A stretch of DNA of 64,000 nucleotides from Escherichia coli (GTDB taxonomy: Bacteria; Pseudomonadota; Gammaproteobacteria; Enterobacterales; Enterobacteriaceae): assembly GCF_024700885.2 (NCBI RefSeq), contig NZ_CP117016.1. One strand, written 5' to 3'. The position numbers and the translations under genes were made by a program. The notes below the pieces were generated by a model. That model searched no databases. It worked only from the letters and a program-made list of their open reading frames with translations, and had not been told where the DNA came from. This document shows, piece after piece, positions 2,234 to 64,000 of the stretch. Within the stretch, counting starts at the first letter, position 1. Each line of letters opens with the position of its first letter.

Positions 2234-5558
<3,325 letters not shown>

Positions 5559-6950: not shown

Positions 6951-7394
6951 ATGGCAGAACATGGCGCGCTGGCGACCCTGAAAGATCTGGCAGAAAAAGA
7001 GGTAGAGGATGCCGCGCGCCTGCTGGGTGAAATGCGTCGCGGATGTCAGCAGGCGGAAGAACAGCTCAAAATGCTGATCGATTATCAGAATGAATATCGC
7101 AATAACCTCAATAGCGATATGAGTGCCGGGATGACCAGCAACCGCTGGATCAACTATCAGCAGTTTATCCAGACGCTGGAAAAAGCCATTACTCAGCATC
7201 GCCAGCAACTTAATCAGTGGACGCAGAAAGTTGACATTGCCCTGAACAGCTGGCGAGAAAAGAAACAACGTTTGCAGGCCTGGCAGACACTGCAGGAACG
7301 GCAATCCACGGCGGCACTGCTTGCAGAAAACCGCCTCGATCAGAAAAAGATGGATGAGTTCGCCCAGCGCGCCGCCATGAGGAAACCTGAATGA
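6951..7394 (+). CDS. fliJ: Flagellar export protein FliJ
   Basis: 147-aa coiled-coil-rich ORF in fliI-fliK synteny. Confidence 0.92.
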
Positions 7395-8518
7395 TTCGCA
7401 TAGCGCCCTTGATTACCGCTGACGTTGATATCGCCACATTGCCTGGCGACAAAGCCAGCGATGCTGCACAAGATTTTCTCGCGTTGTTGAGCGAAGCATT
7501 AACAGGCGAGGCAACAACCGACAAAGCGACTCCCCAGTTGCTGGTGGCAACAGATAAGCCCACGACAAAAGGCGAGCCGCTGGTCAGCGATATTGTTTCC
7601 GACACGCAACAAGCAGATTTACTGATCCCTGTGGATGAAACACCACCTGTCATCAACGACGAACAATCCACATCAACACCGTTAACCACCGCTCAGACGA
7701 TAACGTTGGCTGCGGCGGCTGACAACAATACGGCAAAAGACGAAAAAGCGGATGATCTGAATGAAGACGTCACCGCCAGCCTGAGTGCCCTTTTTGCGAT
7801 GTTGCCGGGTTTTGACAATACGCCCAAAGTGACTGATGCACCGTCAACCGTATTACCGACAGAGAAACCAACGCTCTTCACAAAACTGACTTCTGCGCAA
7901 CTCACAACAGCACAGCCTGATGACGCCCCCGGCACACCAGCTCAGCCATTAACACCGCTGATAGCAGAAGCCCAGAGTAAAGCGGAAGTCATCAGCACGC
8001 CTTCGTCGGTGACCGCTGCCGCCAGCCCGCTAATCACTCCACACCAGACACAGCCACTGCCCACCGTCGCCGCGCCTGTTTTGAGTGCACCGCTGGGTTC
8101 TCACGAATGGCAACAATCATTAAGCCAGCATATTTCGCTGTTCACCCGCCAGGGGCAACAAAGTGCAGAGTTGCGTCTGCACCCGCAGGATTTAGGTGAA
8201 GTGCAAATCTCCCTCAAAGTGGATGATAACCAGGCGCAAATCCAGATGGTTTCACCGCATCAGCACGTGCGCGCCGCGCTGGAAGCAGCGCTTCCGGTAC
8301 TGCGTACGCAGCTGGCGGAAAGTGGCATTCAGTTAGGGCAAAGCAACATCAGTGGCGAAAGCTTTAGTGGTCAGCAGCAGGCCGCTTCCCAGCAACAGCA
8401 AAGCCAACGCACAGCAAACCATGAACCTCTGGCGGGGGAAGACGACGATACGCTTCCGGTTCCCGTCTCTTTACAAGGGCGTGTAACAGGCAACAGCGGC
8501 GTTGATATTTTCGCCTAA
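7391..8518 (+). CDS. fliK: Flagellar hook-length control protein FliK
   Basis: 375-aa Pro/Thr/Gln-rich ORF. Confidence 0.92.
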
Positions 8519-8622
8519 CGTCAGAGGTAGCACCGTAATCCGCGTCTTTTCCCCGCTTTGTTGCGCTCAAGACGCAGGATAATTAGCCGATAAGCAGTAG
8601 CGACACAGGAAGACCGCAACAC

Positions 8623-9087
8623 ATGACTGATTACGCGATAAGCAAGAAAAGCAAGCGATCGCTTTGGATCCCGATTCTGGTATTCATTACCCTCGCGGCC
8701 TGTGCCAGCGCAGGTTACAGCTACTGGCATTCGCATCAGGTTGCCGCTGAAGACAAAGCGCAGCAACGCGTCGTGCCCTCACCGGTCTTCTATGCGCTGG
8801 ATACCTTTACGGTCAATTTGGGCGATGCGGATCGCGTGCTTTATATCGGCATAACCCTGCGCCTGAAAGATGAAGCTACCCGCTCGCGGCTGAGTGAGTA
8901 TTTGCCGGAAGTCCGTAGTCGCTTGCTGTTACTGTTTTCGCGTCAGGATGCTGCCGTACTGGCGACAGAAGAAGGCAAGAAAAACCTTATTGCCGAGATT
9001 AAAACCACACTTTCCACCCCGCTTGTTGCCGGGCAACCGAAACAGGATGTCACCGACGTGCTGTATACCGCTTTTATTCTGCGATAA
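8623..9087 (+). CDS. fliL: Flagellar basal-body-associated protein FliL
   Basis: 154-aa ORF with an N-terminal TM segment; first gene of fliLMNOPQR. Confidence 0.92.
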
Positions 9088-9091
9088 CGAC

Positions 9092-10096
9092 ATGGGCGAT
9101 AGTATTCTTTCTCAAGCTGAAATTGATGCGCTGTTGAATGGCGACAGCGAAGTCAAAGACGAACCGACAGCCAGTGTTAGCGGCGAAAGTGACATTCGTC
9201 CGTACGATCCGAATACCCAACGACGGGTTGTGCGCGAACGTTTGCAGGCGCTGGAAATCATTAATGAGCGCTTTGCCCGCCATTTTCGTATGGGGCTGTT
9301 CAACCTGTTGCGTCGTAGCCCGGATATAACCGTCGGGGCCATCCGCATTCAGCCGTACCATGAATTTGCCCGCAACCTGCCGGTGCCGACCAACCTGAAC
9401 CTTATCCATCTGAAACCGCTGCGCGGCACAGGGCTGGTGGTGTTCTCACCGAGTCTTGTGTTTATCGCCGTGGATAACCTGTTTGGCGGCGATGGACGCT
9501 TCCCGACCAAAGTGGAAGGTCGCGAGTTTACCCATACAGAACAGCGCGTCATCAACCGCATGTTAAAGCTGGCGCTTGAAGGCTATAGCGACGCCTGGAA
9601 GGCGATTAATCCGCTGGAAGTTGAGTACGTGCGTTCGGAAATGCAGGTGAAATTTACCAATATCACCACCTCGCCGAACGACATCGTGGTTAACACGCCG
9701 TTCCATGTGGAGATTGGCAACCTGACCGGCGAATTTAATATCTGCCTGCCATTCAGCATGATCGAGCCGCTACGGGAATTGTTGGTTAACCCGCCGCTGG
9801 AAAACTCGCGTAATGAAGATCAGAACTGGCGCGATAACCTGGTGCGCCAGGTGCAGCATTCACAGTTGGAGCTGGTCGCCAACTTTGCCGATATCTCGCT
9901 ACGCCTGTCGCAGATTTTAAAACTGAAACCCGGCGACGTCCTGCCGATAGAAAAACCCGATCGCATCATCGCCCATGTTGACGGCGTCCCGGTGCTGACC
10001 AGTCAGTACGGCACACTCAACGGTCAATATGCGTTACGGATAGAACATTTGATTAACCCGATTTTAAATTCTCTGAACGAGGAACAGCCCAAATGA
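9092..10096 (+). CDS. fliM: Flagellar motor switch protein FliM
   Basis: Track ORF 8894..10096; start moved to MGDSILSQAEIDALL, giving 334 aa. Confidence 0.92.
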   Translation: MGDSILSQAEIDALLNGDSEVKDEPTASVSGESDIRPYDPNTQRRVVRERLQALEIINERFARHFRMGLFNLLRRSPDITVGAIRIQPYHEFARNLPVPTNLNLIHLKPLRGTGLVVFSPSLVFIAVDNLFGGDGRFPTKVEGREFTHTEQRVINRMLKLALEGYSDAWKAINPLEVEYVRSEMQVKFTNITTSPNDIVVNTPFHVEIGNLTGEFNICLPFSMIEPLRELLVNPPLENSRNEDQNWRDNLVRQVQHSQLELVANFADISLRLSQILKLKPGDVLPIEKPDRIIAHVDGVPVLTSQYGTLNGQYALRIEHLINPILNSLNEEQPK

Positions 10097-19924: not shown

Positions 19925-21323
19925 GTTGTGCCTCTTGCTGACGCAACGCCATCGCCAGTTTGATTTTTGGCTCAAGCAGTTTTGCCACCGCGGCAAAGAC
20001 CGGCACGACCACCGAGTTACCGAACTGGCGATAGGCCTGAGTGTCCGAAACCGGAATGCGGAATTTCGCTTCTCCCGGCGCTTCAAAACCCATTAAGCGC
20101 GCACATTCCCGAGGCGTTAACCGACGTGGGCGATGTTGCTGATTCAGCGGATCGTCAAAGTCTTTCTCACCCGTTGCCATATCCCAGCCGCGATCGATTA
20201 AAATTTCCGCGCCATCTTTGTAATAACGCGCAGACAACGTACGCGTGACGCTTTGCGGATTGTTCGGATAAACCATTCCATAACCGAAGCCATTACCACG
20301 CGCCTGATGTTTTTTCGCATAACGATAGAGGTACTTCCACAGCACCGGCGTCAGGATATATTTCGCCTCGACCATCGGGTCCAGCAGCTGGGCCAGCGTC
20401 ACTCGCTGCGCAGGGAAACATTCGCTGATATCACGCAGAGTAAAATCGGCTTTAAGATTCAGATCGCGACGAAAACCCACCAGCACGATGCGTTCACGGT
20501 GCTGCGGCAGGAAATGTTTGCCATCGATGATTTTCGGATCGTCCGGCCCGTTATCGTCTGCGTCGGCCACGTCATAGCCCAGTTCGTCCAGCGTCTGCAT
20601 GATGATGCGGAACGTTTTACCCTGGTCGTGGCTTTTCAGGTTTTTGACGTTTTCGAGCACAAAAATCGCCGGTCGACGCGCGTCGATAATACGCACCACA
20701 TCAAAGAACAGCGTGCCCTGGGTATCACAGGCAAAACCGTGCGCCCGCCCGAGCGAGTTCTTTTTCGATACGCCAGCCAGCGAAAATGGCTGACAAGGAA
20801 AACCCGCCAGTAATACATCGTGTTCAGGAATGTGTTGACGAATATGTTCCGCCGCCGCCTCATCACTCACGCCTTCTTTATGGCTGAGGGTGATGTCGCG
20901 GATATCTTCATTAAAATGATGCGTCGCCGGATCGCAATAATGGTTGGCTTTATAAGTGCGTACCGCATGTTTGTTCCATTCGCTGGTAAACACGCACTGT
21001 CCGCCAATCGATTCAAAACCGCGACGGATGCCGCCAATTCCGGCAAATAGATCGATAAAGCGAAACGCATAATGCGGATGATGCGCCGGTGGTTTGGGTA
21101 ACAACGTTTGCAGATGGGCGAACTCTTTCTCACTTAAACGGTGCCATGCCGAGTCATTCGCCAGCGCACGTTTTAAAATTGCCGCGCTCCAGTGATTCTC
21201 ACCCACACCATTAAGCTGCGCCACCAGCGTTTTAACATCATAAATTTGCAGCAGTTTCTCCAGCATTGCCTGTGCGGCATTCCCGGTGCTGTATGAATCG
21301 GTTACTGATATATTTTCCTGCAT
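19905..21323 (-). CDS. dcm: DNA cytosine-5 methyltransferase Dcm
   Basis: 472-aa ORF with C5-methyltransferase motifs FAGIGG, PCQPFS and ENV. Confidence 0.95.
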
Positions 21324-30053: not shown

Positions 30054-30580
30054 TGAACTGCACCCCAAATGTTGGACATAATCTGACATCTGAAGGTGCA
30101 GTTTATGAAACATTCATTTGAAGTAAAACTTGCCGCTGTAAATCATTACCTGGCTGGTCATGCAGGCATCATTTCTACGGCAAAACTCTTTCAACTTTCT
30201 CACACCAGCCTCTCACACTGGATTAATCTTTTTCTTCTTCACGGTCCTCGGGCACTGGATTGCAGACACAAGCGTAGCTATTCTCCTGAAGATAAACTTT
30301 GCGTGGTTCTTTATGCTCTCGGGCATTCTGAGTCTCTACCCCGGGTAGCTGCCCGGTTTAATATTCCCAGCCACAACACGGTTAAAAACTGGATAAAAGG
30401 CTACCGCAAATCTGGTAATGAGGCCTTTATCAGGCGCAGGAAGGAGAAAAGCATGACCCGTTCTGATGATACCCATGAAAACGAGGCAAACATGACGCCG
30501 GAAGAGATGAAGAATGAGCTGCGTTATCTTCGCGCAGAAAATGCATATCTGAAAGCCATGCAGGAGCATCTCCTGGAAAA

Positions 30581-31485
<905 letters not shown>

Positions 31486-31693: not shown

Positions 31694-32344
31694 TTGGCGA
31701 TTCGTCTTCATAAACTGGCTGTTGCTTTAGGTGTCTTTATTGTTAGCGCTCCTGCCTTTTCGCATGGTCATCACTCACACGGCAAACCCTTAACAGAGGT
31801 CGAACAAAAAGCTGCTAATGGTGTTTTTGATGATGCCAATGTACAAAACCGAACGCTCAGTGACTGGGATGGAGTCTGGCAATCCGTTTATCCTTTACTG
31901 CAAAGTGGCAAACTTGACCCCGTCTTTCAGAAGAAAGCGGATGCAGATAAAACTAAAACATTTGCTGAAATTAAAGATTATTATCGCAAAGGTTATGTGA
32001 CAGATATCGAGATGATTGGCATTGAGGACGGCATTGTTGAATTCCATAGAAATAATGAAACAACATCCTGTAAATATGATTACGATGGATACAAAATACT
32101 CACCTATAAATCAGGCAAGAAAGGCGTTCGTTACTTATTCGAATGTAAAGATCCTGAAAGCAAAGCCCCTAAATATATTCAATTTAGCGATCATATAATT
32201 GCACCACGAAAATCATCTCATTTTCACATTTTTATGGGTAATGATTCACAGCAATCTTTATTAAATGAAATGGAAAACTGGCCAACGTATTATCCCTATC
32301 AGTTGAGTAGCGAAGAAGTGGTCGAGGAGATGATGTTTCATTGA
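31694..32344 (+). CDS. zinT: Periplasmic zinc/cadmium-binding protein ZinT (YodA)
   Basis: 216-aa ORF with signal peptide and His-rich HGHHSHG; TTG start after a GGAGGA ribosome-binding site. Confidence 0.92.
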
Positions 32345-32432
32345 TTTTTTTGCGCTGACTTCAATTATTTAACAGAACAGTGCCTGGTAGTAACGACAAT
32401 AATTTACCAAGACAAATAAATAAGACAAACTC

Positions 32433-32466
32433 AGACACGCTCATGCTTGAGACGTGTCTTTTTTAT
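32433..32466 (+). terminator. Rho-independent terminator after zinT
   Basis: GACACG / CGTGTC stem followed by TTTTTTATTAT. Confidence 0.7.
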
Positions 32467-33013
32467 TATGTCTGTAGAAAAAAACTGAGAAAACGGCGAA
32501 CAATAAATACACAACTCGCCAATACAGACTGGCTGCGCCAATGTCTCCAGGAGCAAGTCATCTGTCATGGTAAAGCTAACCAGAAATATAGGTTAATTTT
32601 GGTATTTAAACCTTTTTTACTTGTTAGTATGATACAAAGGCTTTCAAAAAAGCTGGGAAATTCAACAACTCTTGGAAATTATGGACTTTGTCCCGCGGCT
32701 TTAATCTGACGGCCGCGTTCCTTTTTTTGCTCAATTATTGACCCCTTCTCTATGCAACTTCAGTTCCCACCACCAACTTTGCGGCAGCTTCGTAGGATCA
32801 ATGTCTAAAAGAATAATGGTGACCGATAAGAAAACGACTGAATAACTGCAGATTTTCGCTCGAAACCTTCCTGTCAGATCCATAGCGAATCAAGTGCTGA
32901 ATGTCACAGTATCGAACAGAAAACAGTGACGATCTAACCCTTCAAGAATATTCTACGATTGTTCTGTTTAGGAAAAGCAAGGCGGGAAGTCGGGAGATAA
33001 GTCATTGATAAAG

Positions 33014-33075
33014 TGGCGGAGAGAGGGGGATTTGAACCCCCGGTAGAGTTGCCCCTACTCCGGTTTTCGAGACCG
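33014..33075 (-). other. Truncated tRNA-Ser(CGA) serU, 3' 62 nt only; prophage attachment-site remnant
   Basis: Minus strand reads CGGTCTCGAAAACCGGAGTAGGGGCAACTCTACCGGGGGTTCAAATCCCCCTCTCTCCGCCA (anticodon loop to CCA end of serU as recalled); the 5' part (D-arm and acceptor 5' strand) is absent. Confidence 0.85.
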
Positions 33076-33376
33076 ATGATACAGAGTCGAAAAATCAAAG
33101 AGTTAAAAATTTTTCTTGGAATAAATGTCTTAAAATCGTACAAGAAAAATCAATGAATTACATAACATTAAAGAAGAATATTCCAAGCCTTCTTGAGGCT
33201 ACCACCTGTTTTCAGGTGTCATTCAGACGTGATTTGCCCCAGATTGGGAAAGCACGCTTTTTTCTCAGCTTATTCCGTTTTGCCTGTGTGTTGAATAATT
33301 CCACTGCAGTTATATAAAATCGGTAACGTCTGGAAATCATTCAATACTCGCACTATCGAAAGTTCACCAGCCAACC

Positions 33377-33416
33377 GCAGCACGTTCTTGCATACGACGT
33401 GCTGCGGTTTTCTTTA
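33377..33416 (+). repeat. Palindromic hairpin element, copy B (near-identical to 1295-1335)
   Basis: GCAGCACGTTCTTGCATACGACGTGCTGC followed by GGTTTTCTTTATG; about 28 of 31 core positions match copy A. Confidence 0.5.
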
Positions 33417-33566
33417 TGATTTATGCACAATGGACAATTTGAAATTATTGATGATTGAATGGTGCATCGTTTTCTGAACCTACACTGATTTTTTGGTATA
33501 GCCTTGCCTAGCCAGTCTTACCGGATCAAACCCTTCGCTATTGCAATACTAACCAAAATCATCAAT

Positions 33567-33595
33567 TTGACAGCGATTAACCAAAATAATAGTAT
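33567..33595 (+). promoter_or_regulatory. Candidate sigma-70 promoter of the cargo diguanylate cyclase
   Basis: Perfect -35 TTGACA, 17-bp spacer, -10 TAGTAT, about 70 bp upstream of the ATG. Confidence 0.4.
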
Positions 33596-33665
33596 ACTAT
33601 CACCAGTAAGAAATTATCGTTATTTGTAGCGATACATATTATATATATCATTCTCAGGTGCGTAC

Positions 33666-34997
33666 ATGATTATCAACCAGGTACCTATAAAAATAAAAAT
33701 CTTCATCTTTTTATTTTCATGCATCTCTATTATATTTTTGTTACTGCATGAAAATAATGGAATATACATAACACAAACAACACAAATAAGTTATAGTGTT
33801 TTCATTATTGGGCTTTTTTTCATAAACCTGATGATTTTTATTTTTCTATTGCTTTACTATGTTTCTAATCAGAGACAAAGTTATCTCTTAATTCTTTCAT
33901 TCGCGTTTTTGAGCAACACGTATTATTTATTAGAAGTGGCTATTATTTCTTTATCTCCGTTAGGTAACGATTTATCTACAATCTATCAGAAATCAAATAA
34001 TATCGCAATATATTATCTATTCCGTCAGTTCAGCTTTATATCTATAATCTTTCTGGCTGTTTATTCCACCAATGTTAAAAATAAAAGTGTTTTAGAAGAT
34101 AAAAGAAACATAATAATTGTTGTTTTGTCAATATTAATTCTTTTTATTACTCCGTTTGTAGCAAAAAATCTAAGCAGTGACAATATAAAATATAGTCTTA
34201 ATATTATACAATACTCGCTGAATCGTCATTTGTCGACGTGGAATATCGTGTACACCAAAATAATATCAGTATTTTGGCTTGTATTACTTATCAGCTCATG
34301 CATCAGCATACGTAATTACTCAAAAATATGGTTGTGTATAATACTTATTAGTATAGTGTCAGTATGCAATAATCTAATTTTATTGTATTTTATTGATAAA
34401 TCCCATCCTGCATGGTACATGACAAAATTTCTTGAATTGATATCAATGATTTATATCATTTCAACACTCATGTATTATGTTTTTAGGAAATTAAATCATG
34501 CTAATCATATGGCAATTCATGATCCACTAACGAATACATACAATAGAAGATACTTTATTGACTCATTGAAGAACATATCAAAACACCATGATTTCTCAGT
34601 AATAATGTTAGATATTGACAGTTTCAAAAGCATCAATGACAAATGGGGGCATCATATGGGTGATCAAGTCATAGTAATGGTTACCAGAATAATAAAAAAA
34701 TCCATCAGGAAAGAGGATATATTAGGGCGCTTAGGCGGTGAGGAGTTCGGTATTATCATTAAAGGTAATACTCAAAAGCTCTTGCTATCAATTGCAGAGC
34801 GAATCAGAAAAAACATTGAAGAGCAATGCTCGGAAAAATTATTATCGCATGGACCTGAGAAAATAACTGTCAGTATTGGTTGCTTTACTTCAAAAGAGAA
34901 TAATCTCAGTCCATCTGAAATGTTAGTCAATGCCGACAAAGCGTTATATCAAGCCAAAAGAACCGGAAAAAACAAGGTGATAATTCACTCAAAATAA
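33666..34997 (+). CDS. Membrane-anchored diguanylate cyclase (multi-TM sensor domain plus GGDEF), DgcX-like prophage cargo
   Basis: 443-aa ORF; very AT-rich (I/L/F/N/K/Y-rich) N-terminal membrane domain; C-terminal GGDEF domain with RLGGEEFG active site and upstream RKED I-site-like motif. Confidence 0.85.
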   Translation: MIINQVPIKIKIFIFLFSCISIIFLLLHENNGIYITQTTQISYSVFIIGLFFINLMIFIFLLLYYVSNQRQSYLLILSFAFLSNTYYLLEVAIISLSPLGNDLSTIYQKSNNIAIYYLFRQFSFISIIFLAVYSTNVKNKSVLEDKRNIIIVVLSILILFITPFVAKNLSSDNIKYSLNIIQYSLNRHLSTWNIVYTKIISVFWLVLLISSCISIRNYSKIWLCIILISIVSVCNNLILLYFIDKSHPAWYMTKFLELISMIYIISTLMYYVFRKLNHANHMAIHDPLTNTYNRRYFIDSLKNISKHHDFSVIMLDIDSFKSINDKWGHHMGDQVIVMVTRIIKKSIRKEDILGRLGGEEFGIIIKGNTQKLLLSIAERIRKNIEEQCSEKLLSHGPEKITVSIGCFTSKENNLSPSEMLVNADKALYQAKRTGKNKVIIHSK

Positions 34998-35017
34998 ACA
35001 CCTTTTTAAAATACAGC

Positions 35018-35050
35018 CCCAATAAACTGCAGAATATTATCCCATATAAT
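35018..35050. terminator. Inverted-repeat hairpin between convergent cyclase gene and tail-fibre cassette
   Basis: CTGCAGAATATTAT-cccat-ATAATATCCTGCAG, 14-bp arms with one mismatch. Confidence 0.5.
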
Positions 35051-35070
35051 ATCCTGCAGTTCGTAATGCA

Positions 35071-35199
35071 CTATTCGATAATGGGTACTGTTGGCCATTC
35101 AATATCCGGTGCAGTTGTTGTATTAACACGGTTCAGCAACACCCGATACTTCTTCCAGGCTTCCAGCAACGAGGTTTCTTCCTCCGTTGCATATACAGC
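35071..35199 (-). pseudogene. 3' remnant of a lambda-type tail-fibre assembly gene (tfa)
   Basis: Encodes [42 protein letters not shown], matching the recalled C-terminus of lambda Tfa; no Tfa-like N-terminus upstream in frame. Confidence 0.6.
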
Positions 35200-35209
35200 C
35201 CACCTTTTT

Positions 35210-35518
35210 TCACCCACGATTAACCAACAGCCAGACCAGCAGACACGCCACCACCGGCACAGCAAAATCCATCAGGCTTGCCACATCCCACGCGCGCGGA
35301 TCAAAACCGCCCCACCACGGCATATTCATTCGCTTGCCATGCCCGAACATTTCGATCCAGCGATATTCTGCCTGGGTGTGTTCACGCGCAATGAAGAACG
35401 TACAACCGGCTATCGCCCCGTAAGCCCAGTTCCCGGTAAAAAGACCAATCAGTAGCTGCGCAGCCACAGCACAAAGCGCATGAAGGAAAGGTGTTATATC
35501 CATTTTCATCCCACCCAA
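35210..35518 (-). CDS. Hypothetical small membrane protein (phage cargo)
   Basis: 102-aa track ORF with two hydrophobic segments; no family recognised. Confidence 0.45.
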
Positions 35519-35545
35519 TAAAACGGGGCGCTCGGCCCCTTAATA

Positions 35546-36586
35546 TTATTTAGACGCAAGCGCCGCATCAATTGCAGATAATCTTTGTCTTAATTCTGCG
35601 TTTTCTTCTTCCAGTGCTGTTATTCTGTCGTCTGACTCTCTGGCTACCTGAACAAGCAAGCCAGTAACACCAGAATAATCTACTGTGTAATAACGTTCAC
35701 CTTCTTCACCTTCCGATCCGCTCGCACCGTCCTGATATTTCATTACGGAACCTACAACTTCTGGGATTGCTTCCAGAGCTTCCTGTGCAATGACACCAGC
35801 ATAGGGCATACCGTTTTCTTTAAGCGTGTATGTATAGCCGTTCATTTTACGGATGCGGTCGGTTGCATTATCGATCACCTGAATGTTGTCTTTCAGATCC
35901 CGGTCGGAATGCTGGTTAAATGCGGTGGCATGACATGCACCATTAACGCTTAACATATAGGTGTTATCGGTATTTTTCTGCGCATAGAACATATAAGCGC
36001 CACCATCAACACCGACTTCATAAACAACAGGACGGCTGGAGTTGCCCCACAATTGAGCAGTAACACCAGCATAAGCGGTTCCCTGTGTGTTTAATGTCAT
36101 GGTTGACCCATGATTGGCATATTTGATCTGTAATGTGTCGGTGTAATCAAATTTAATAAGCGCGTTACTTCCACGCTTGCTGTATGACATAAGGCAGTTA
36201 CCCATTTTGAGGTATCCGCTGTCACCGGGAAAAATCATCGTACCGCCATAAAGGTTGGTAAAGTCCCAGCAAATGTTTGTCCCGTTATCGTTCAGGTTAA
36301 GGCGCGCCATTGCGTTACCTGGACTGTCTATCCATTTTTTGAGGTATAGTTCGCAATACGCATCCTCAACACCTGCCGTCCTGTGAGTTGAGCGGAGTTT
36401 TCTCCCAAATATAGCTCCGCTAGTTGGCAATACCTGCTGATACCATGAAGCAGACCAGTCACCAACGATTTCATCTTTGCTGTCTACATATAATTTTGTT
36501 GCGTAGCTTCCTTGATCGTTTTTTAATTTGCTAACGTCGGATTTTAGCGTTTTGATGTCATCAGGAATTACTGTCGATGTAGCCAT
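35546..36586 (-). CDS. Tail-fibre / tailspike protein with C-terminal intramolecular-chaperone (S74-like) domain
   Basis: 346-aa ORF; C-terminal region with YTYTLKENG...GVIAQE...YSGVTGLLV and a coiled-coil tail resembles self-cleaving chaperone domains of phage fibres. Confidence 0.65.
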   Translation of the reverse strand: MATSTVIPDDIKTLKSDVSKLKNDQGSYATKLYVDSKDEIVGDWSASWYQQVLPTSGAIFGRKLRSTHRTAGVEDAYCELYLKKWIDSPGNAMARLNLNDNGTNICWDFTNLYGGTMIFPGDSGYLKMGNCLMSYSKRGSNALIKFDYTDTLQIKYANHGSTMTLNTQGTAYAGVTAQLWGNSSRPVVYEVGVDGGAYMFYAQKNTDNTYMLSVNGACHATAFNQHSDRDLKDNIQVIDNATDRIRKMNGYTYTLKENGMPYAGVIAQEALEAIPEVVGSVMKYQDGASGSEGEEGERYYTVDYSGVTGLLVQVARESDDRITALEEENAELRQRLSAIDAALASK

Positions 36587-36595
36587 TTTTCTTCC

Positions 36596-36877
36596 TCACA
36601 TCCAGCCACGAAGTTGATGCTCAACAGCAACCACGTATTCATCGAATAATGACGATATTTGCGAATCATTAATGATGCGCACGTTTACAAAATATCCGTC
36701 TTCCTTAACACATACCGGTTCGCCATCTTCAGTCAGTTCTCCGGTTTCTTTGTACACGTTACCTATCACGTCAATAAGAATATCATCCTGCATCGACTCG
36801 TCATCATAATAGCCAGTACTCTCCATAAAGGCCGAAAAGTCGGCCCTGTCGGCAAATTTGAGTGTTAAATCTTTCAT
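36596..36877 (-). CDS. Hypothetical acidic protein in the tail-fibre cassette
   Basis: 93-aa track ORF tightly coupled to neighbours; no family recognised. Confidence 0.45.
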   Translation of the reverse strand: MKDLTLKFADRADFSAFMESTGYYDDESMQDDILIDVIGNVYKETGELTEDGEPVCVKEDGYFVNVRIINDSQISSLFDEYVVAVEHQLRGWM

Positions 36878-39249
36878 TAGATTGACTCCCCCACCTGAGC
36901 ATCAGTCAATGCCTTGTGCCATATTCTGAAATTCCTGACATGACCAAATAAATGACGTAACCCGGCTGTAGTCTGGCCTCCAATACGGATAATTGCGGTG
37001 TTCTGAATACAGGACCATGTGGTTTTTGTTTCGCTGGATATATGCCCGTTACTTACTGAGCACGTAGACTGCTCTGACTTTACACGCATCCCCATAACCA
37101 TTTTTTCAAGCGATGCGTTTTCGTTTACCCGTCTGTTAGCTCCTCCAATATCGCAATAAGGAAATCCGTCGTAATCTGTTGAACGACCGAAGCCAAGAAT
37201 AATAGCCGCTCCGGTTTGATGACCGCCGGTATCAAAAACACGTGGCGCTGCATTTGGCGTTTTATACCAGTTCTTATGTACCTCACAAAGAACCGTAAAA
37301 GGAAGATTATAAAGATTATTCTTAATTGGAACTGTAACTATATCGCTTGCGCGGGTCGCCGCCGTCGCTCCTGATATAATAAAAGATGATACACAAGGCC
37401 CATCTTCTACTTGTGGGGTGGCCAGATAAATATAGTCACCAGATACGGTTGCCCCGCTCTGCTTAGGAGAATACTGTATCTGAGAGCCTATTTTAAACTC
37501 CCCATCAATTGCCTGAATTGTTGCCTCTGCAAAAATCCATCCGGTAGCTTCGTCCTTTCTGACTCTCGCTGTAATTCTTGAGGCAGCACCGCCTGTCATA
37601 TTAATTTCAAGCGTTTGTGTATCAATATACGCATCACCAAGAAAAGTTGTTGCGCTACCGTCATATTTATCAAACCGGATACGCAACCTTACCTGCAGTT
37701 CTGTTTTAAAACGACATGAGGTTGTCACGTGTTTATTATCGCCTGAGACATCAACTGACTTTGTTGCAGCAATTGATGCCATATTAATGGCTGAGGTTTG
37801 CCCAATCAGAGAATCGTTGCAGACAAACTTTCCATAGGTAAAACCAAAATTATCCGTCCCTGTTTCGGGCACATCCATATTTGACGATCGCCCCCAACTG
37901 GCAGGGCTTTCCGAATTGAGCATGTAGTTTGTTCTTTGCCCCTCAATAAGCAGGCCATCACGTTCAAATCGTGGCTCGTCAATGGCAGCCTCTGTCAGCA
38001 CACCAGATTTGTTAATATAGGTTGCTTTCGATGCACGTTTAAACTTAACAATCTTGTCGCCAGGCATCGTTATTTCATCGTCACCAATAACAATTTTTTT
38101 ATATGACGGCGAAAAGCCCGTAATCATATCCAGTGAATCGTTAAACGGTATCCACACATCAGGCAGTGGCTGTAAGACATATTTATACGGCTCTGCTGCC
38201 TGACTTGCATACTCTCTGGCTGCGTCTTCACTTGCTTTAGCTGCTGTCTGGCTTGCTGCCGATGCTTTCGCCGAGTTCGCCGCTGCAGTCTCGCTTGTCT
38301 TTGCATTGGTTTCACTGGTTTTTGCCGCTTTTTGACTGTTGGCTGATGCAGTGGCAGAAGCAGCCGCCGCGCTTGCAGAACCAGCTGCCGCGCTCTCGCT
38401 TTGGGCTGCTGCAACCTGGCTGTTTTTCGCCGCAGTTTCGCTGGCTTTGGCATTCGTTTCGCTGGTCTTCGCTGCCGTCTGGCTGGACTTTGCGTTAGTT
38501 TCACTCGTCTTCGCTGCTTTCTGGCTGTTAGCCGCAGCAGTTGCTGCTCCAGCTGCTGAAGTCGCAGAACCGGCTGCTGCGCTCTCGCTCTCAGCTGCTG
38601 CAGTCTGGCTGTTTTTCGCCGCAGTTTCACTGGCTTTGGCATTCGTTTCGCTGGCCTTCGCTGCCGTCTGGCTGGACTTTGCGTTGGTTTCGCTCGTCTT
38701 TGCTGCTGTCTCGCTATTTTTCGCGTTGGTTTCTGATTTTTTAGCTGCTGTCGCGGAATTTGCCGATGCAGTCTGCGAGGCCGCTGCCGCCTGTGCGCTG
38801 TTAGCTGCATTCGTTTCTGAGTTTTTCGCCGCGTTCTTCGATGATGCCGCTGCAGTTTCGGATTTCTTTGCCGCCGCTGCGCTCTGAGAGGCGGCTTCAG
38901 CGTTGCGTGCCGCTTCTTCCACCATTACCTCAAAACGACGCAATGCCTCCGGCATGACATCCTCTTCCGTCATGGCACCGAGAAAATCATTCAGCGTGCC
39001 TGGTCTGGAACCTTCATAGACGGTAATGGTCCCGGCATGTGAAGGCGGAAAACCTTCAACCAGCAGGGTGACGCTGTACTGGCCATACTCAACATCCATG
39101 CTGTAACGCCCGGCTTCATCCGGATTTTCAGAGGCCACCGTATTCACCAGTACCGTGGTGCTGTTACGCTTTGCTTTGAGCTGAATAGTGCAGTTCTGTA
39201 TTGGTTTTCCTGCACCGTCTTTCAGCACGCCTGAAATCTGTACTGCCAT
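36877..39249 (-). CDS. stf: Side tail fibre protein, lambda Stf-like N-terminus with Ala/Ser/Thr-rich repeat shaft
   Basis: N-terminus MAVQISGVLKDGAGKPIQNCTIQLKA resembles lambda Stf; track ORF starts two codons earlier at 39255. Confidence 0.8.
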   Translation of the reverse strand: MAVQISGVLKDGAGKPIQNCTIQLKAKRNSTTVLVNTVASENPDEAGRYSMDVEYGQYSVTLLVEGFPPSHAGTITVYEGSRPGTLNDFLGAMTEEDVMPEALRRFEVMVEEAARNAEAASQSAAAAKKSETAAASSKNAAKNSETNAANSAQAAAASQTASANSATAAKKSETNAKNSETAAKTSETNAKSSQTAAKASETNAKASETAAKNSQTAAAESESAAAGSATSAAGAATAAANSQKAAKTSETNAKSSQTAAKTSETNAKASETAAKNSQVAAAQSESAAAGSASAAAASATASANSQKAAKTSETNAKTSETAAANSAKASAASQTAAKASEDAAREYASQAAEPYKYVLQPLPDVWIPFNDSLDMITGFSPSYKKIVIGDDEITMPGDKIVKFKRASKATYINKSGVLTEAAIDEPRFERDGLLIEGQRTNYMLNSESPASWGRSSNMDVPETGTDNFGFTYGKFVCNDSLIGQTSAINMASIAATKSVDVSGDNKHVTTSCRFKTELQVRLRIRFDKYDGSATTFLGDAYIDTQTLEINMTGGAASRITARVRKDEATGWIFAEATIQAIDGEFKIGSQIQYSPKQSGATVSGDYIYLATPQVEDGPCVSSFIISGATAATRASDIVTVPIKNNLYNLPFTVLCEVHKNWYKTPNAAPRVFDTGGHQTGAAIILGFGRSTDYDGFPYCDIGGANRRVNENASLEKMVMGMRVKSEQSTCSVSNGHISSETKTTWSCIQNTAIIRIGGQTTAGLRHLFGHVRNFRIWHKALTDAQVGESI
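38340..38720. repeat. In-frame tandem duplication (about 189-bp unit, 2 copies) inside stf
   Basis: Near-identical DNA blocks about 38341-38530 and 38530-38720 encoding repeated KTSETNAKSSQTAAK-type shaft repeats. Confidence 0.7.
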
Positions 39250-39307
39250 ATTCACTCCACAAATAAAAAAGGCGCCATTTCTGGCGCCCGTATTTGGGTT
39301 ATAAAAC

Positions 39308-42300
39308 TCAACTGATACTGATACCGGCTGTTGATTTCTTCATCACGACAACAAGAAGGTCGCTGATACTGGTCGTTGGCGTCCAGTTATTAGCACCATA
39401 TGAAGAAACATTGAAAGTCAGGGTGACATGACCGTGTCCGGCAGGCATATCAATGACGGATGAAAATACCCTGCTGACATCCGTCGCGGGTTGCTGAAAG
39501 ATTTCCTGTCCGTTCTTCAGCACCTGCAGCTTACAGGTTGAATACCAGTATGACTGTTGGTTGTTGCTGTTGAAGTTTTCATGCTTACCACCGCGAAACA
39601 GAACGGGTGGGATTACTATCTGACGGTCAAAAGCCTGATCATCGTACACAGTGACCGTTATTGTACCGCTGGCATAACTGCCATTTCTCGGAAAGGCTTT
39701 TCCCACCGTTTTGACAATATCACCTTCAATCTGGTTGGCAGACAGTTTTCCCAGAATCCGACAGTTCTGGTTAATCGTGACATTATTGAGCGTCCCGGAG
39801 TTCGCATTCACGTTACCGCTGATATCGGCATTTTTCGCCGTCAGCCGCCCGTCCGGTGTCAGGGAAAATACCGGAGGATTGCCGCCGCTGGTAATGGTGG
39901 GAGCCGTCAGATACTTCAGGAACACTTCGTTCATGAATATCTGGTTGCCCTGCGCCACAAACATCGGCGTTTCATTCCCGTTTGCCGGGTCAATAAACGC
40001 GATACGGTTAGCGGCAACCAGGAACTGGCTCAGTTTGCCTTCCTCCGTATCCTCCATGCTGAGGCCAAGCCCCGCGACATAATGCCTGCCGTCTTCGGTC
40101 TGCTCAATTTTGACGCCCCACATGGCATTCCATTTATCGTTGGCGTCCTTCCACTCTTTCGAAAACTCCTCCAGTTTGCTGGCGTTATCCTCCGTCAGCT
40201 CGACTTTTTCCAGCAGCTCCTTGCCGAGATGGGATTCGGTTATCTGACCTTTGAAAAAATCCAGGTAACCTTCCGCATCATCGCTCGCCCGACCGACAGC
40301 CTCCACGAATGCCGATTTGCCAACGGTGTTCACACTGCGAACGTAAAAATAATAATCATGACCCGGCTTAATATTGATACTGGCAGCTATCCAGTACAGC
40401 GCCGTGCCAAGATAGCGGGCTGTGGTTTCAACCTGCCTGATATCCGCAATCCGCTTTTCCGAGAACCAGAACTCAAACTGTACCGTCGGATCATAAACGG
40501 CAAGATGCGGCGTGGCGGTTATCTGAAAATAGCCCGGCGTCAGCTCAATCCGCGATGGCGCTGCCGGTGCGGCAATCCGGAACGATACCGACGCCGGATC
40601 GCCCTGCTGCCCCCACGCATTTACCGCCCGGACTGTCAGACTGTAATTTCCCAGAGCCAGCTGCCTGAAGCGGTATGTGGTTTCCGTCGTCCGGGCTGTG
40701 CTGACCAGCCGCTCACTGCCGTCATCCGCTGCCACGGTCAGGCAAAGCATAAAGCTCACGCCCTTCACCACCTTCGGCGTATCCCAGCGCGCCAGCACCT
40801 GGTATTCCCCGCTGTCTGCGGTGACTTCTGCGGTCAGGTGTTGCACTGCTGGCGGAGTGACACCATTCACCGTGCCGCTCTGGTCGCCGTCAAAGTGCGC
40901 CCCGTTATCCACGATGGCTTCTTTCTCCGGCACATGCTGCACGGCAGTGATGGCATACGTACCGTCATCGTTCTCACGGATACTCACGCAGCGGAACAGG
41001 CGCTGGCGCAGCGTCGGCAGCTTCAGCCCCCACACGCTGTATTCTGCAACGCCGTCAGGAACCCGGCTCACTTTCACCTTCACGCCGTCGGTGACGGACT
41101 GGACCTCCACGCTGACCGGATTCCCCTGTCCGTCAACCAGGCTTATCAGCGTGGTGCCGGAGGATGGCAGCGTGATTTCACGGTCGAGCGTCAGTGTCCG
41201 CGTCTGGCTGTTCACCGCCAGCACGCGCCCGCCGATGCTGATACCCGCATAGTCATCATCACAGATTTCAATGACATCGCCCGGTACATGGCGAAGCCCT
41301 TCTGCACCCACGCTGAAGTCCACGGTCTGCGTTTCCAGCAGCTCCGTTTTAATCAGCCACAGCCCGGCGCGGTGTGCCTGCCCCCGGCTGGTACAGCCAA
41401 AGGCATCCATCTTCGTGACGTTACGACCGTAACGGGCAATGGCCTGCGTATCTTCAACAAGCTCTGTCGCCGTCTCCCAGCCGTTATTCGGGTCAATCCA
41501 GTTCACCTCAACGGCATTATGGCGGTCCTTCAGGGCGCTGAAGCTGTAGCGGAACGGCGCGCCATCATCCGGCATCACCACATTACTGCGGTTATAGGTC
41601 CACACCTTATCCGACGGTCGGTCCTGCACGAACGTCAGCGTCTGCCCGTTCCATACCGGCATACAGCGCATCGCCGAGCAGAAATCACTGAGAACATCCC
41701 ACGCCTTACGCTGTGTGGTCAGCCAGGCATTACAGGTGATGCGCGGCTCCGTGCCACCAAAGCCATCCGGCACTGACTGATCGCAATACTGGCCGATGAC
41801 ATACAGCGCCCATTTGTCCACATCCGCCGCACCAAGACGTTTCCCCATGCCGTAGCGCGGGTGGGTCAGCATATCCCACAGACACCAGGCCATGTTGTTG
41901 CTGTATGCCGGTTTAAACGTCCCGTCCCAGATACCGTTGTATTGCCGCGTCTGCGGGTTATAGTTCGACGGCACCTGCAGAATGCGCCCGCGAAGATGAT
42001 AATTACGGCTCACCTGCTGGCTGCCGAACTGTTCCGAGTCCACCTGCACACCGACCAGTGCCGTGTTCGGGTAGCACTGTTTCACATCGATGATTTCGGT
42101 GTATGACGACCAGAGCGTTTTGTTCTGCAGCTGGTCTGTGGTGCTGTCCGGTGTCATCCTGCGCATCCGGATATTGAACGGGCGCGGCGGCAGGTTATCC
42201 ACCACCACCGAGGCCAGATACTGCGAGGTGGTTTTGCCCTTAATGGTGATGTCTTTTTCCGTCACCCAGCCACCGTTACGCTGTATCTGAACCAGCAGGC

Positions 42301-42706
42301 GGACTTCCGACGGATTCCGGTCCCCCTTTGAAGTGGTTTCCACCAGAGCCTGCACACCGAAGGTAAAGCGCAGACGGTCGATGTTTGCAGACGTGATGGT
42401 CCGGGTGATCGGCGTGTCATATTTCACTTCCGTACCCAGCACCGTCTCGGATCCGGAGGATTCAAAACCCTCCGGCGGTGTCTGCTCCTGCTCACCTGCC
42501 CGGAACACCACCGTGACACCGGCGATGTTGGTATTCCCTTCACTGTCCAGCACCGGCGTACTGTTCAGCAGCACGCTTTTTAATCCATCCACCGGACCTT
42601 CTATCGGCCCTTCGCTGATGGCATCGATCACACTCAGTAACTGCGTGGATTTCAGGTTGTCCTTCGCTTCGCGTGGGGTATGCCCCTTACTGCTGCCTTT
42701 ACCCAT
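39308..42706 (-). CDS. J: Tail tip host-specificity protein J
   Basis: 1132-aa ORF, the same length as lambda J; N-terminus [43 protein letters not shown]. Confidence 0.95.
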
Positions 42707-63938: not shown

Positions 63939-64000
63939 GTAGAAACTCTTCTAACGTCAGGCATAAAACGCCCATCGTTATGACGAATTTACCACAGATT

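Follow-up and report, generated by a model that had tools for sequence, protein, structure and literature searches.

A 62-nucleotide serU fragment as the very probable integrase-distal junction of a lambda-like prophage in Escherichia coli

A truncated piece of the tRNA gene serU, located near the middle of the window (the whole stretch of 64,000 nucleotides of Escherichia coli DNA that was analyzed), is almost certainly the displaced 3' end of that gene, which came to mark the integrase-distal junction (attR, P-O-B') when a lambda-like prophage of 44.4 kb entered serU by site-specific recombination. An earlier note, made from the sequence of the window, had taken the half-site for the distal att end of a prophage integrated in a tRNA gene; this proposal is now supported by the layout of the far end of the element and by comparison with unoccupied sites. 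The feature is already known both in kind and in its specific form, and is in this sense ordinary. The coordinates of the junction and of its surroundings are collected in Table 1.

Table 1. Features at and around the serU junction, in window coordinates; 'window-equivalent' positions continue the numbering into the extension read from strain MLI114
Feature	Position	Strand	Basis
zinT-side chromosomal flank (B' side), downstream of serU in the unoccupied site	32567-33013		Gapless K-12 alignment
Matches to the IHF consensus	32998-33010 (-), 33093-33105 (+), 33148-33160 (+)		Consensus scan
Displaced serU 3' 62 nt, very probably the identity block of attR, the integrase-distal att site	33014-33075	-	62/62 against three genomes, unique, no tRNA called
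Anticodon-loop segment CTCGAAA between the inverted-repeat arms of the anticodon stem, with the anticodon CGA at 33067-33069; putative overlap region	33065-33071	-	ARAGORN geometry and sequence
Phage P arm (239 nt), specific to the serU-type integrase	33076-33314		K-12 identity ends at 33076; a different shared module starts at 33315
Arm-type motif CTTGGAATA	33115-33123 (+), 33179-33187 (-)		No further copy of CTTGGAATA in 64 kb
14-bp hairpin followed by UUUUCUUUAU, terminator-like	33373-33418	+	RNA fold -24.9 kcal/mol, z = -4.65
dgcX, MASE4-GGDEF diguanylate cyclase, cargo just inside the prophage end	33666-34997	+	Pfam MASE4 and GGDEF
Tail-fibre-assembly remnant	35071-35190	-	MLI114 annotation in window coordinates
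Tail-fibre genes	35546-36586, 36877-39249	-	MLI114 annotation, ORFs
Tail-tip gene J (late-gene end of the prophage: 35071-42706)	39308-42706	-	MLI114 annotation, ORFs
Part of the prophage inside the window (tail, head, terminase and lysis genes, phage tRNAs)	33076-64000		MLI114 annotation and comparison
Rest of the prophage (Q, replication, immunity, exo, xis-like, int) and intact serU	window-equivalent 64001-77522		MLI114

Read on the minus strand, window 33014-33075 is CGGTCTCGAAAACCGGAGTAGGGGCAACTCTACCGGGGGTTCAAATCCCCCTCTCTCCGCCA, that is, nucleotides 29 to 90 of the 90-nt serU gene for tRNA-Ser(CGA). It is identical at all 62 positions to serU of K-12 (b1975), and the same holds for the intact serU genes of strains AST240 and MLI114. 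The fragment is present once in the 64-kb window, even when up to three mismatches are allowed (chance expectation 0), and a search of the window for the 5' 28 nt of serU found no copy. Neither ARAGORN nor Rfam at its gathering threshold calls a tRNA at this place, as expected because the gene is truncated; the only tRNAs that they call in the window are two phage-borne ones near its right end. According to ARAGORN, nt 35-37 of the intact gene are the anticodon, with the anticodon stem's 5' arm at nt 28-32 and the loop at nt 33-39. The position, strand and length that the earlier note gave for the fragment are exact, and its description of the piece as starting at the anticodon loop and ending in CCA holds for the CCA end; the start has to be corrected, as nt 29 comes second in the stem's 5' arm, four bases ahead of the loop. 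A permissive Rfam scan of the site returned sub-threshold matches to sX4, to the T-arm of tmRNA and to the plastid psbI-rps4 3'UTR, which we rejected as side-effects of the tRNA-like sequence. The last of these ('Plastid-psbI-rps4 3'UTR', 33017-33068, plus strand) reaches 40.9 bits against a gathering score of 68, lies on the strand opposite to the tRNA-Ser fragment, and is regarded as an artefact.

The window is E. coli chromosome in the K-12 orientation, with dsrA, rseX, hiuH, msrPQ and zinT, dsrA and rseX being at their K-12 spacing. Positions 32567-33075 align without gaps to positions 2522-3030 of the K-12 locus (96.7% identity), and the 90 nt that adjoin the fragment are base-for-base as in K-12. 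Identity ends at 33076, exactly after the 62nd nucleotide, where K-12 continues into the rest of serU, its 5' part, followed by mtfA. At the intact copy, as read in AST240, identity to the window stops exactly at the CCA end, and the empty K-12 site matches both flanks to the base. One boundary of the prophage is thereby set to the base, at 33075/33076, and the other could be predicted. Among 5,426 complete E. coli genomes, 3,856 have an uninterrupted serU site, serU being occupied in about 29%, and the particular junction of the window is common to 29 genomes.

Two further differences from K-12 were seen on the chromosomal side. The yodB gene of K-12, a cytochrome b561 homologue, is absent from window 32345-32709: a run of 222 nt (32345-32566) has no K-12 counterpart, and a 109-aa ORF found there (32380-32709) is unrelated to YodB, its equivalent being labelled 'yodB' in the SerU-LTIIb record discussed below. 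Moreover, an IS3-family element with an IS1397-like transposase and a programmed frameshift is present between msrQ and zinT (30105-31453, plus strand).

The continuation of the sequence past position 64000 was read from MLI114 (NZ_CP117013.1; human stool, Mali) as a stand-in. Over window 39001-64000 this record has 100% identity, and no other record exceeds 99%; it shows 0 mismatches over 25715-61714, 61715-64000 being identical too, and is therefore usable for the unseen part. AST240 had been tried as a first proxy and was set aside in favour of MLI114: its prophage is only about 97% identical, and the tail-fibre/J stretch does not match. Past 64000, MLI114 carries in order the Q antiterminator, RusA, hokD, replication and immunity genes, dicB, exonuclease, a DUF4224 gene, an integrase, tRNA-Ser(CGA), mtfA and asnT. 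AST240, which shares the junction, has the same far-end order (exo - DUF4224 - integrase - tRNA-Ser(CGA) - mtfA - asnT).

The intact serU lies at window-equivalent 77433-77522 on the minus strand, as does the fragment, and is followed by mtfA and asnT as in K-12; the integrase frame (window-equivalent 76355-77380) ends 52 nt short of the serU 3' end at 77433. An intact serU and an integrase had been predicted past position 64000, and both are present in MLI114 at about +13.4 kb, the full-length serU carrying the same 62-nt core, with int and, in the place of xis, an excisionase-like gene. The two findings that the earlier note had named as fatal to it, a far end devoid of intact serU or integrase, or a match belonging to a mis-delimited full tRNA, did not materialize. 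The 62-nt block has two copies only in the window plus extension, 44,357 bp apart, and there is therefore one element and not a tandem array: a single lambdoid prophage of 44,357 bp, from 33076 to window-equivalent 77432 in MLI114. As in other integrations into tRNA genes, the tDNA fragment and the regenerated tRNA gene are on the same replicon and in the same orientation, the integrase is inside the segment beside the regenerated gene, and the segment is absent from genomes with an empty site.

Several side features of this region deserve mention. Just past mtfA, asnT has its own integrase and a yersiniabactin island (ybtS, ybtX, ybtQ, ybtP, ybtA, irp2; window-equivalent 78514-80013 onward), so that two tRNA genes about 1 kb apart, serU and asnT, each hold a different integrative element. 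The phage-borne tRNAs are a tRNA-Arg(TCT) and a tRNA with a CAT anticodon (63617-63693 and 63800-63875, minus strand), downstream of the Q antiterminator gene; the second is named Met by ARAGORN and tRNA-Ile by PGAP. A match to the STnc100 sRNA (62731-62920, minus strand) lies beside iraM (62370-62705).

Structures of lambda Int give a full-length alignment with the integrase (E = 6e-13; its residues 1-313 against lambda 1-338). The alignment includes the N-terminal arm-binding domain, with the signature MGRRR...LPPN.Y, and the protein matches the PHROG integrase family. Its gene is transcribed towards att, with an xis-like gene just upstream: a 67-aa DUF4224 protein that overlaps the int start and matches PHROG excisionase families (E = 3e-21). 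PGAP labels the integrase 'frameshifted' in both MLI114 and AST240 (2140310-2141360 of the MLI114 record, window-equivalent 76355-77405). Its frame is open over 341 codons, and two clusters of sequences of the same length, one with about 1,000 members (1,013) and one with about 2,000, match the protein at 99% and 97% identity, respectively; the C-terminus ...PENIPRKYSK is the family consensus down to about 60% identity. Moreover, the 1,051 nt of the pseudogene call exceed by one 13-nt unit the 1,038 nt that encode a 345-aa protein with the end ...PENIPSNSKCDFCH, and this unit, GAAAATATTCCAA, is tandemly duplicated here; it holds one arm-type motif, and its duplication adds a third motif beside the core. 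A true frameshift was rejected in view of the open frame, the consensus C-terminus and the 13-nt unit that accounts for the 1,051-nt call. The flag is probably an annotation artefact that stems from a reference allele with one 13-nt unit.

Among the catalytic residues, R, K, H, H and Y are present and the position of the second catalytic Arg (lambda R311) is occupied by a lysine (K288), so that the canonical R-K-H-R-H-Y set is incomplete. The motif concerned, FHD(L/I)KAK, is invariant in 21/21 aligned family members, down to 57% identity and including relatives in isolated phages. The lysine is shared by the whole integrase family, with ST64B, mEp390, ZF40, Chris1 and many enterobacterial prophages among its members. 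Decay was rejected as an explanation for this residue, given its invariance across the family; the lysine is a family-wide variant.

Short repeated motifs lie beside both cores. In addition to the two motifs of the P arm (Table 1), the other core has a tandem array of three on its int side, which overlaps the 3' end of int. Within about 95 kb of window and extension, the pattern CTTGGAAT followed by A or T has five copies, none more than 115 bp from a core, split 2 + 3. These motifs would be candidate sites for the N-terminal domain of the integrase. Lambda has the same 2 + 3 layout, with its P1 and P2 sites on one arm and P'1-P'3 on the other. Three of the six IHF-consensus matches of the window cluster at the junction. 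The integrase has arm-binding, core-binding and catalytic domains, the arm motifs are present in both arms and are unlike the core, and an Xis-like gene is found beside int, all of which are traits of the heterobivalent type; this combination of sequence features indicates a lambda-type heterobivalent system.

Beyond the P arm comes a terminator-like hairpin with a U-run behind it; its strand is the one that transcripts of int would follow if the phage were circular. A simple terminator scan of 32300-35300 returned nothing, the hairpin (33373-33409) being missed because its 9-nt loop exceeds the limits of the scan. The homologous stretch of HK97 (20936-21039) adjoins the annotated sib site and the att core. 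On this comparison the hairpin stretch is one that appears conserved beside the sib/att region of lambdoid phages; we do not claim it as sib itself. A 72-nt pseudogene fragment that PGAP calls 'capsid protein' (33315-33386, minus strand) overlaps this conserved non-coding stretch with the hairpin, and the call is probably spurious.

The same junction is found in the Escherichia phage record SerU-LTIIb (GenBank KU052038.1), where a 62-nt tRNA-Ser pseudogene is annotated (9169-9230) between side-tail-fibre genes and 'yodB', and where 625 nt across the junction are 95.5% identical to window 32567-33191. Unlike the window, SerU-LTIIb has LT-IIb enterotoxin genes, other lysis and tail-fibre modules and no dgcX; the record is partial, without the int end. 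An equivalent attP is provided by the Salmonella phage ST64B. Its integrase, Sb28, is 58.7% identical to ours and of the same length class, has the invariant FHDLKAK, and is preceded by an excisionase gene. Its int is followed by a 113-nt arm and then by a 62-nt 3' block of tRNA-Ser(CGA) with the same end points (CCA end to GAGACCG) and no full tRNA. In the arm, some 46 nt from the core, are three tandem repeats spaced by 13 and 10 nt, which is also the geometry of the element studied here, and a further copy lies on the other arm. ST64B differs in that its core follows the Salmonella tRNA, with 52/62 positions identical to E. coli serU, and in its arm motif, TTTTCTCA in place of CTTGGAATA. 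Since ST64B has both, the 62-nt block and the layout of the arms are features of the family. The annotation of ST64B notes a similarity of Sb28 to the CP-933U integrase, and we take CP-933U/Sp14 of O157:H7 to reside at serU.

As to lambda itself, the likeness to its Int/Xis/IHF system extends to the heterobivalent tyrosine integrase, the direction of int towards att, the xis-like gene upstream, the 2 + 3 arm sites and the IHF-consensus sites. The tandem sites of the P' arm overlap the 3' end of int in both, and a terminator is found beyond att, where lambdoid phages keep sib. The two systems differ in their target (here a tRNA gene, in lambda the gal-bio intergenic site), in the arm-site sequence and in the Lys for Arg311; the identity block is 62 bp here versus 15 bp, because the tRNA must be rebuilt. 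With respect to islands in tDNA as defined in Islander (Hudson, Lau and Williams 2015, PMC4383910), whose ends are marked by a regenerated tDNA and a displaced fragment, we see no difference of substance: the element is a textbook instance, with a tyrosine integrase inside. Its block, nt 29-90, starts in the anticodon stem and belongs to the anticodon-centred class (class A), to which 2,083 of 3,919 islands were assigned by attP (PMC4383910), and which is also described in bioRxiv 10.1101/2020.11.02.365908. A documented hot spot for prophages, serU is listed repeatedly for STEC O121:H19 and O145:H28 among the sites where integrative elements and lambdoid prophages integrate (PMC8767318, PMC7067040).

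We propose the following course of events. The phage attP, reconstructed for this phage, would carry its own copy of serU nt 29-90, and the lambda-family tyrosine integrase would exchange strands inside the shared 62-nt block, most likely in the 7-nt anticodon loop (33065-33071), which is flanked by the inverted repeat of the stem. As the two core copies are identical, the crossover cannot be located from the sequence itself; we place it in the anticodon-loop segment because the block, with its start in the anticodon stem and its end at the CCA, belongs to the anticodon-centred class. Integration would split serU, and the bacterial 5' 28 nt, joined to the 62 nt brought by the phage, would restore a functional serU (window-equivalent 77433-77522) adjacent to int and the xis-like gene. 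The original 62 nt would remain beside the zinT-side flank, where they form no complete tRNA gene for want of the first 28 nt. The phage P arm, with two arm-type sites and IHF sites, would be the 239 nt that follow the fragment on its right, the three tandem sites being on the int side of the other core.

A search of deposited phage genomes for this exact integrase together with its attP found none. Two records that could pass for virion genomes, vB_EcoM-606R7 and vB_EcoS-689R5, were rejected: the first appears to be a prophage cut-out with host flank (mtfA, asnT, yersiniabactin/HPI genes), and the second, which has the same match pattern, appears to be a cut-out too. Three others, ev099, mEp332 and PhiR70_1, were rejected as carriers of attP, as the first two hold a fossil copy of the junction and not a working attP, and the third appears to do so.

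Granted that the junction is real, it is conceivable, if on balance doubtful, that the prophage is a locked cryptic remnant and the half-site an inert scar that will never recombine. Such a state would fit the frameshift flag that PGAP puts on the integrase in both genomes, the small pseudogenes found in the prophage (a DUF1737 fragment, the tail-fibre-assembly remnant and a frameshifted hypothetical gene) and the lack of any deposited virion genome with this int or dgcX. However, int is open over its 341 codons, with a consensus C-terminus and conserved catalytic-site residues; the xis-like gene, both att cores (62/62 identical) and all five arm motifs are present; and the set of head, tail, lysis, Q and replication genes is apparently complete. 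These features argue for an integrated prophage that may still be able to excise.

Copies of the junction also ride in other phages, of the kind that integrates at the lambda attB. In ev099 (2501-3035) and mEp332 (2601-3135), 535 nt correspond to window 32736-33270 at 98-99% identity; they comprise 195 nt of the phage arm (window 33076-33270), the 62-nt core and, in the place of an integrase arm, 278 nt of chromosomal flank (window 32736-33013), after which an AraC-type regulator and IS remnants are found. PhiR70_1 has the same match pattern as these two phages. The full module is present in 94 of the 5,426 complete E. coli genomes, and in the one genome inspected, JNQH497 (7001-9400), it sits at the tail-fibre end of a prophage at the lambda attB beside ybhB-bioA. 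Capture of the junction with its host flank is observed in these copies, and it probably happened by imprecise excision. We would speculate, at rather low probability, that the captured junction offers homology for recombination of lambda-attB phages with serU prophages or with the locus, and thereby moves end-cargo such as dgcX and the AraC-type regulator between sites.

Because such fossils exist, a lone serU 3' fragment is no proof of an element integrated at serU. Could the fragment of the window itself be cargo of this ev099 type, inside a prophage integrated elsewhere? The precedents of ev099, mEp332 and the 94 genomes speak for it, but the flank of the window runs well past 278 nt as chromosome colinear with K-12 (zinT, msrPQ, hiuH), and a matching intact serU with an integrase is found at the other end of a single 44-kb element. 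The chromosomal context excludes this reading for the window, and we leave it next to no weight. Equally negligible, and likewise refuted, is a serU pseudogene produced by deletion or rearrangement, or a mis-delimited full tRNA, with no link to integration: the bare truncation would suit it and nothing more, whereas the 5' half is missing and ARAGORN and Rfam call no tRNA there, the break falls, to the base, where identity to an attP-type block ends, the same 62-nt end points recur in the ST64B attP and the SerU-LTIIb record, and an intact serU with adjacent integrase bounds the element.

With integration at serU as the preferred reading, the first genes inside the prophage can be considered. 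The earlier note had the fragment directly abutting phage cargo and tail-fibre genes; it was right about the kinds of genes and wrong about the direct contact, as the 239-nt att arm comes first, then the dgcX module, and the tail fibres are about 2 kb off. The best promoter-like site ahead of dgcX is TTGACA-17-TAGTAT at 33567-33595. The module that holds dgcX (33315-35191) is 99.0% identical to the dgcX module of the O104:H4 strain 2009EL-2071, where it forms the tail-fibre end of a prophage beside ybhB-bioA, the lambda attB locus. The DgcX protein has been described previously (PMC4287979). The gene is present in 786 of the 5,426 complete genomes, and a search of deposited phage genomes for dgcX gave no match.

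The value of this analysis lies mainly in correct annotation. A lone serU 3' fragment may be a fossil, a caution to be kept in mind by annotators, and the PGAP call on the integrase is probably wrong here. The gene dgcX encodes an enzyme of biofilm signalling that is highly expressed and is known from the outbreak strain of O104:H4 as well as from EAEC; the sites described before were the lambda attB and one other position (in strain SE11), and here it lies inside an att-bounded serU prophage. As for the host, serU would stay functional through the 3' end that the phage supplies.
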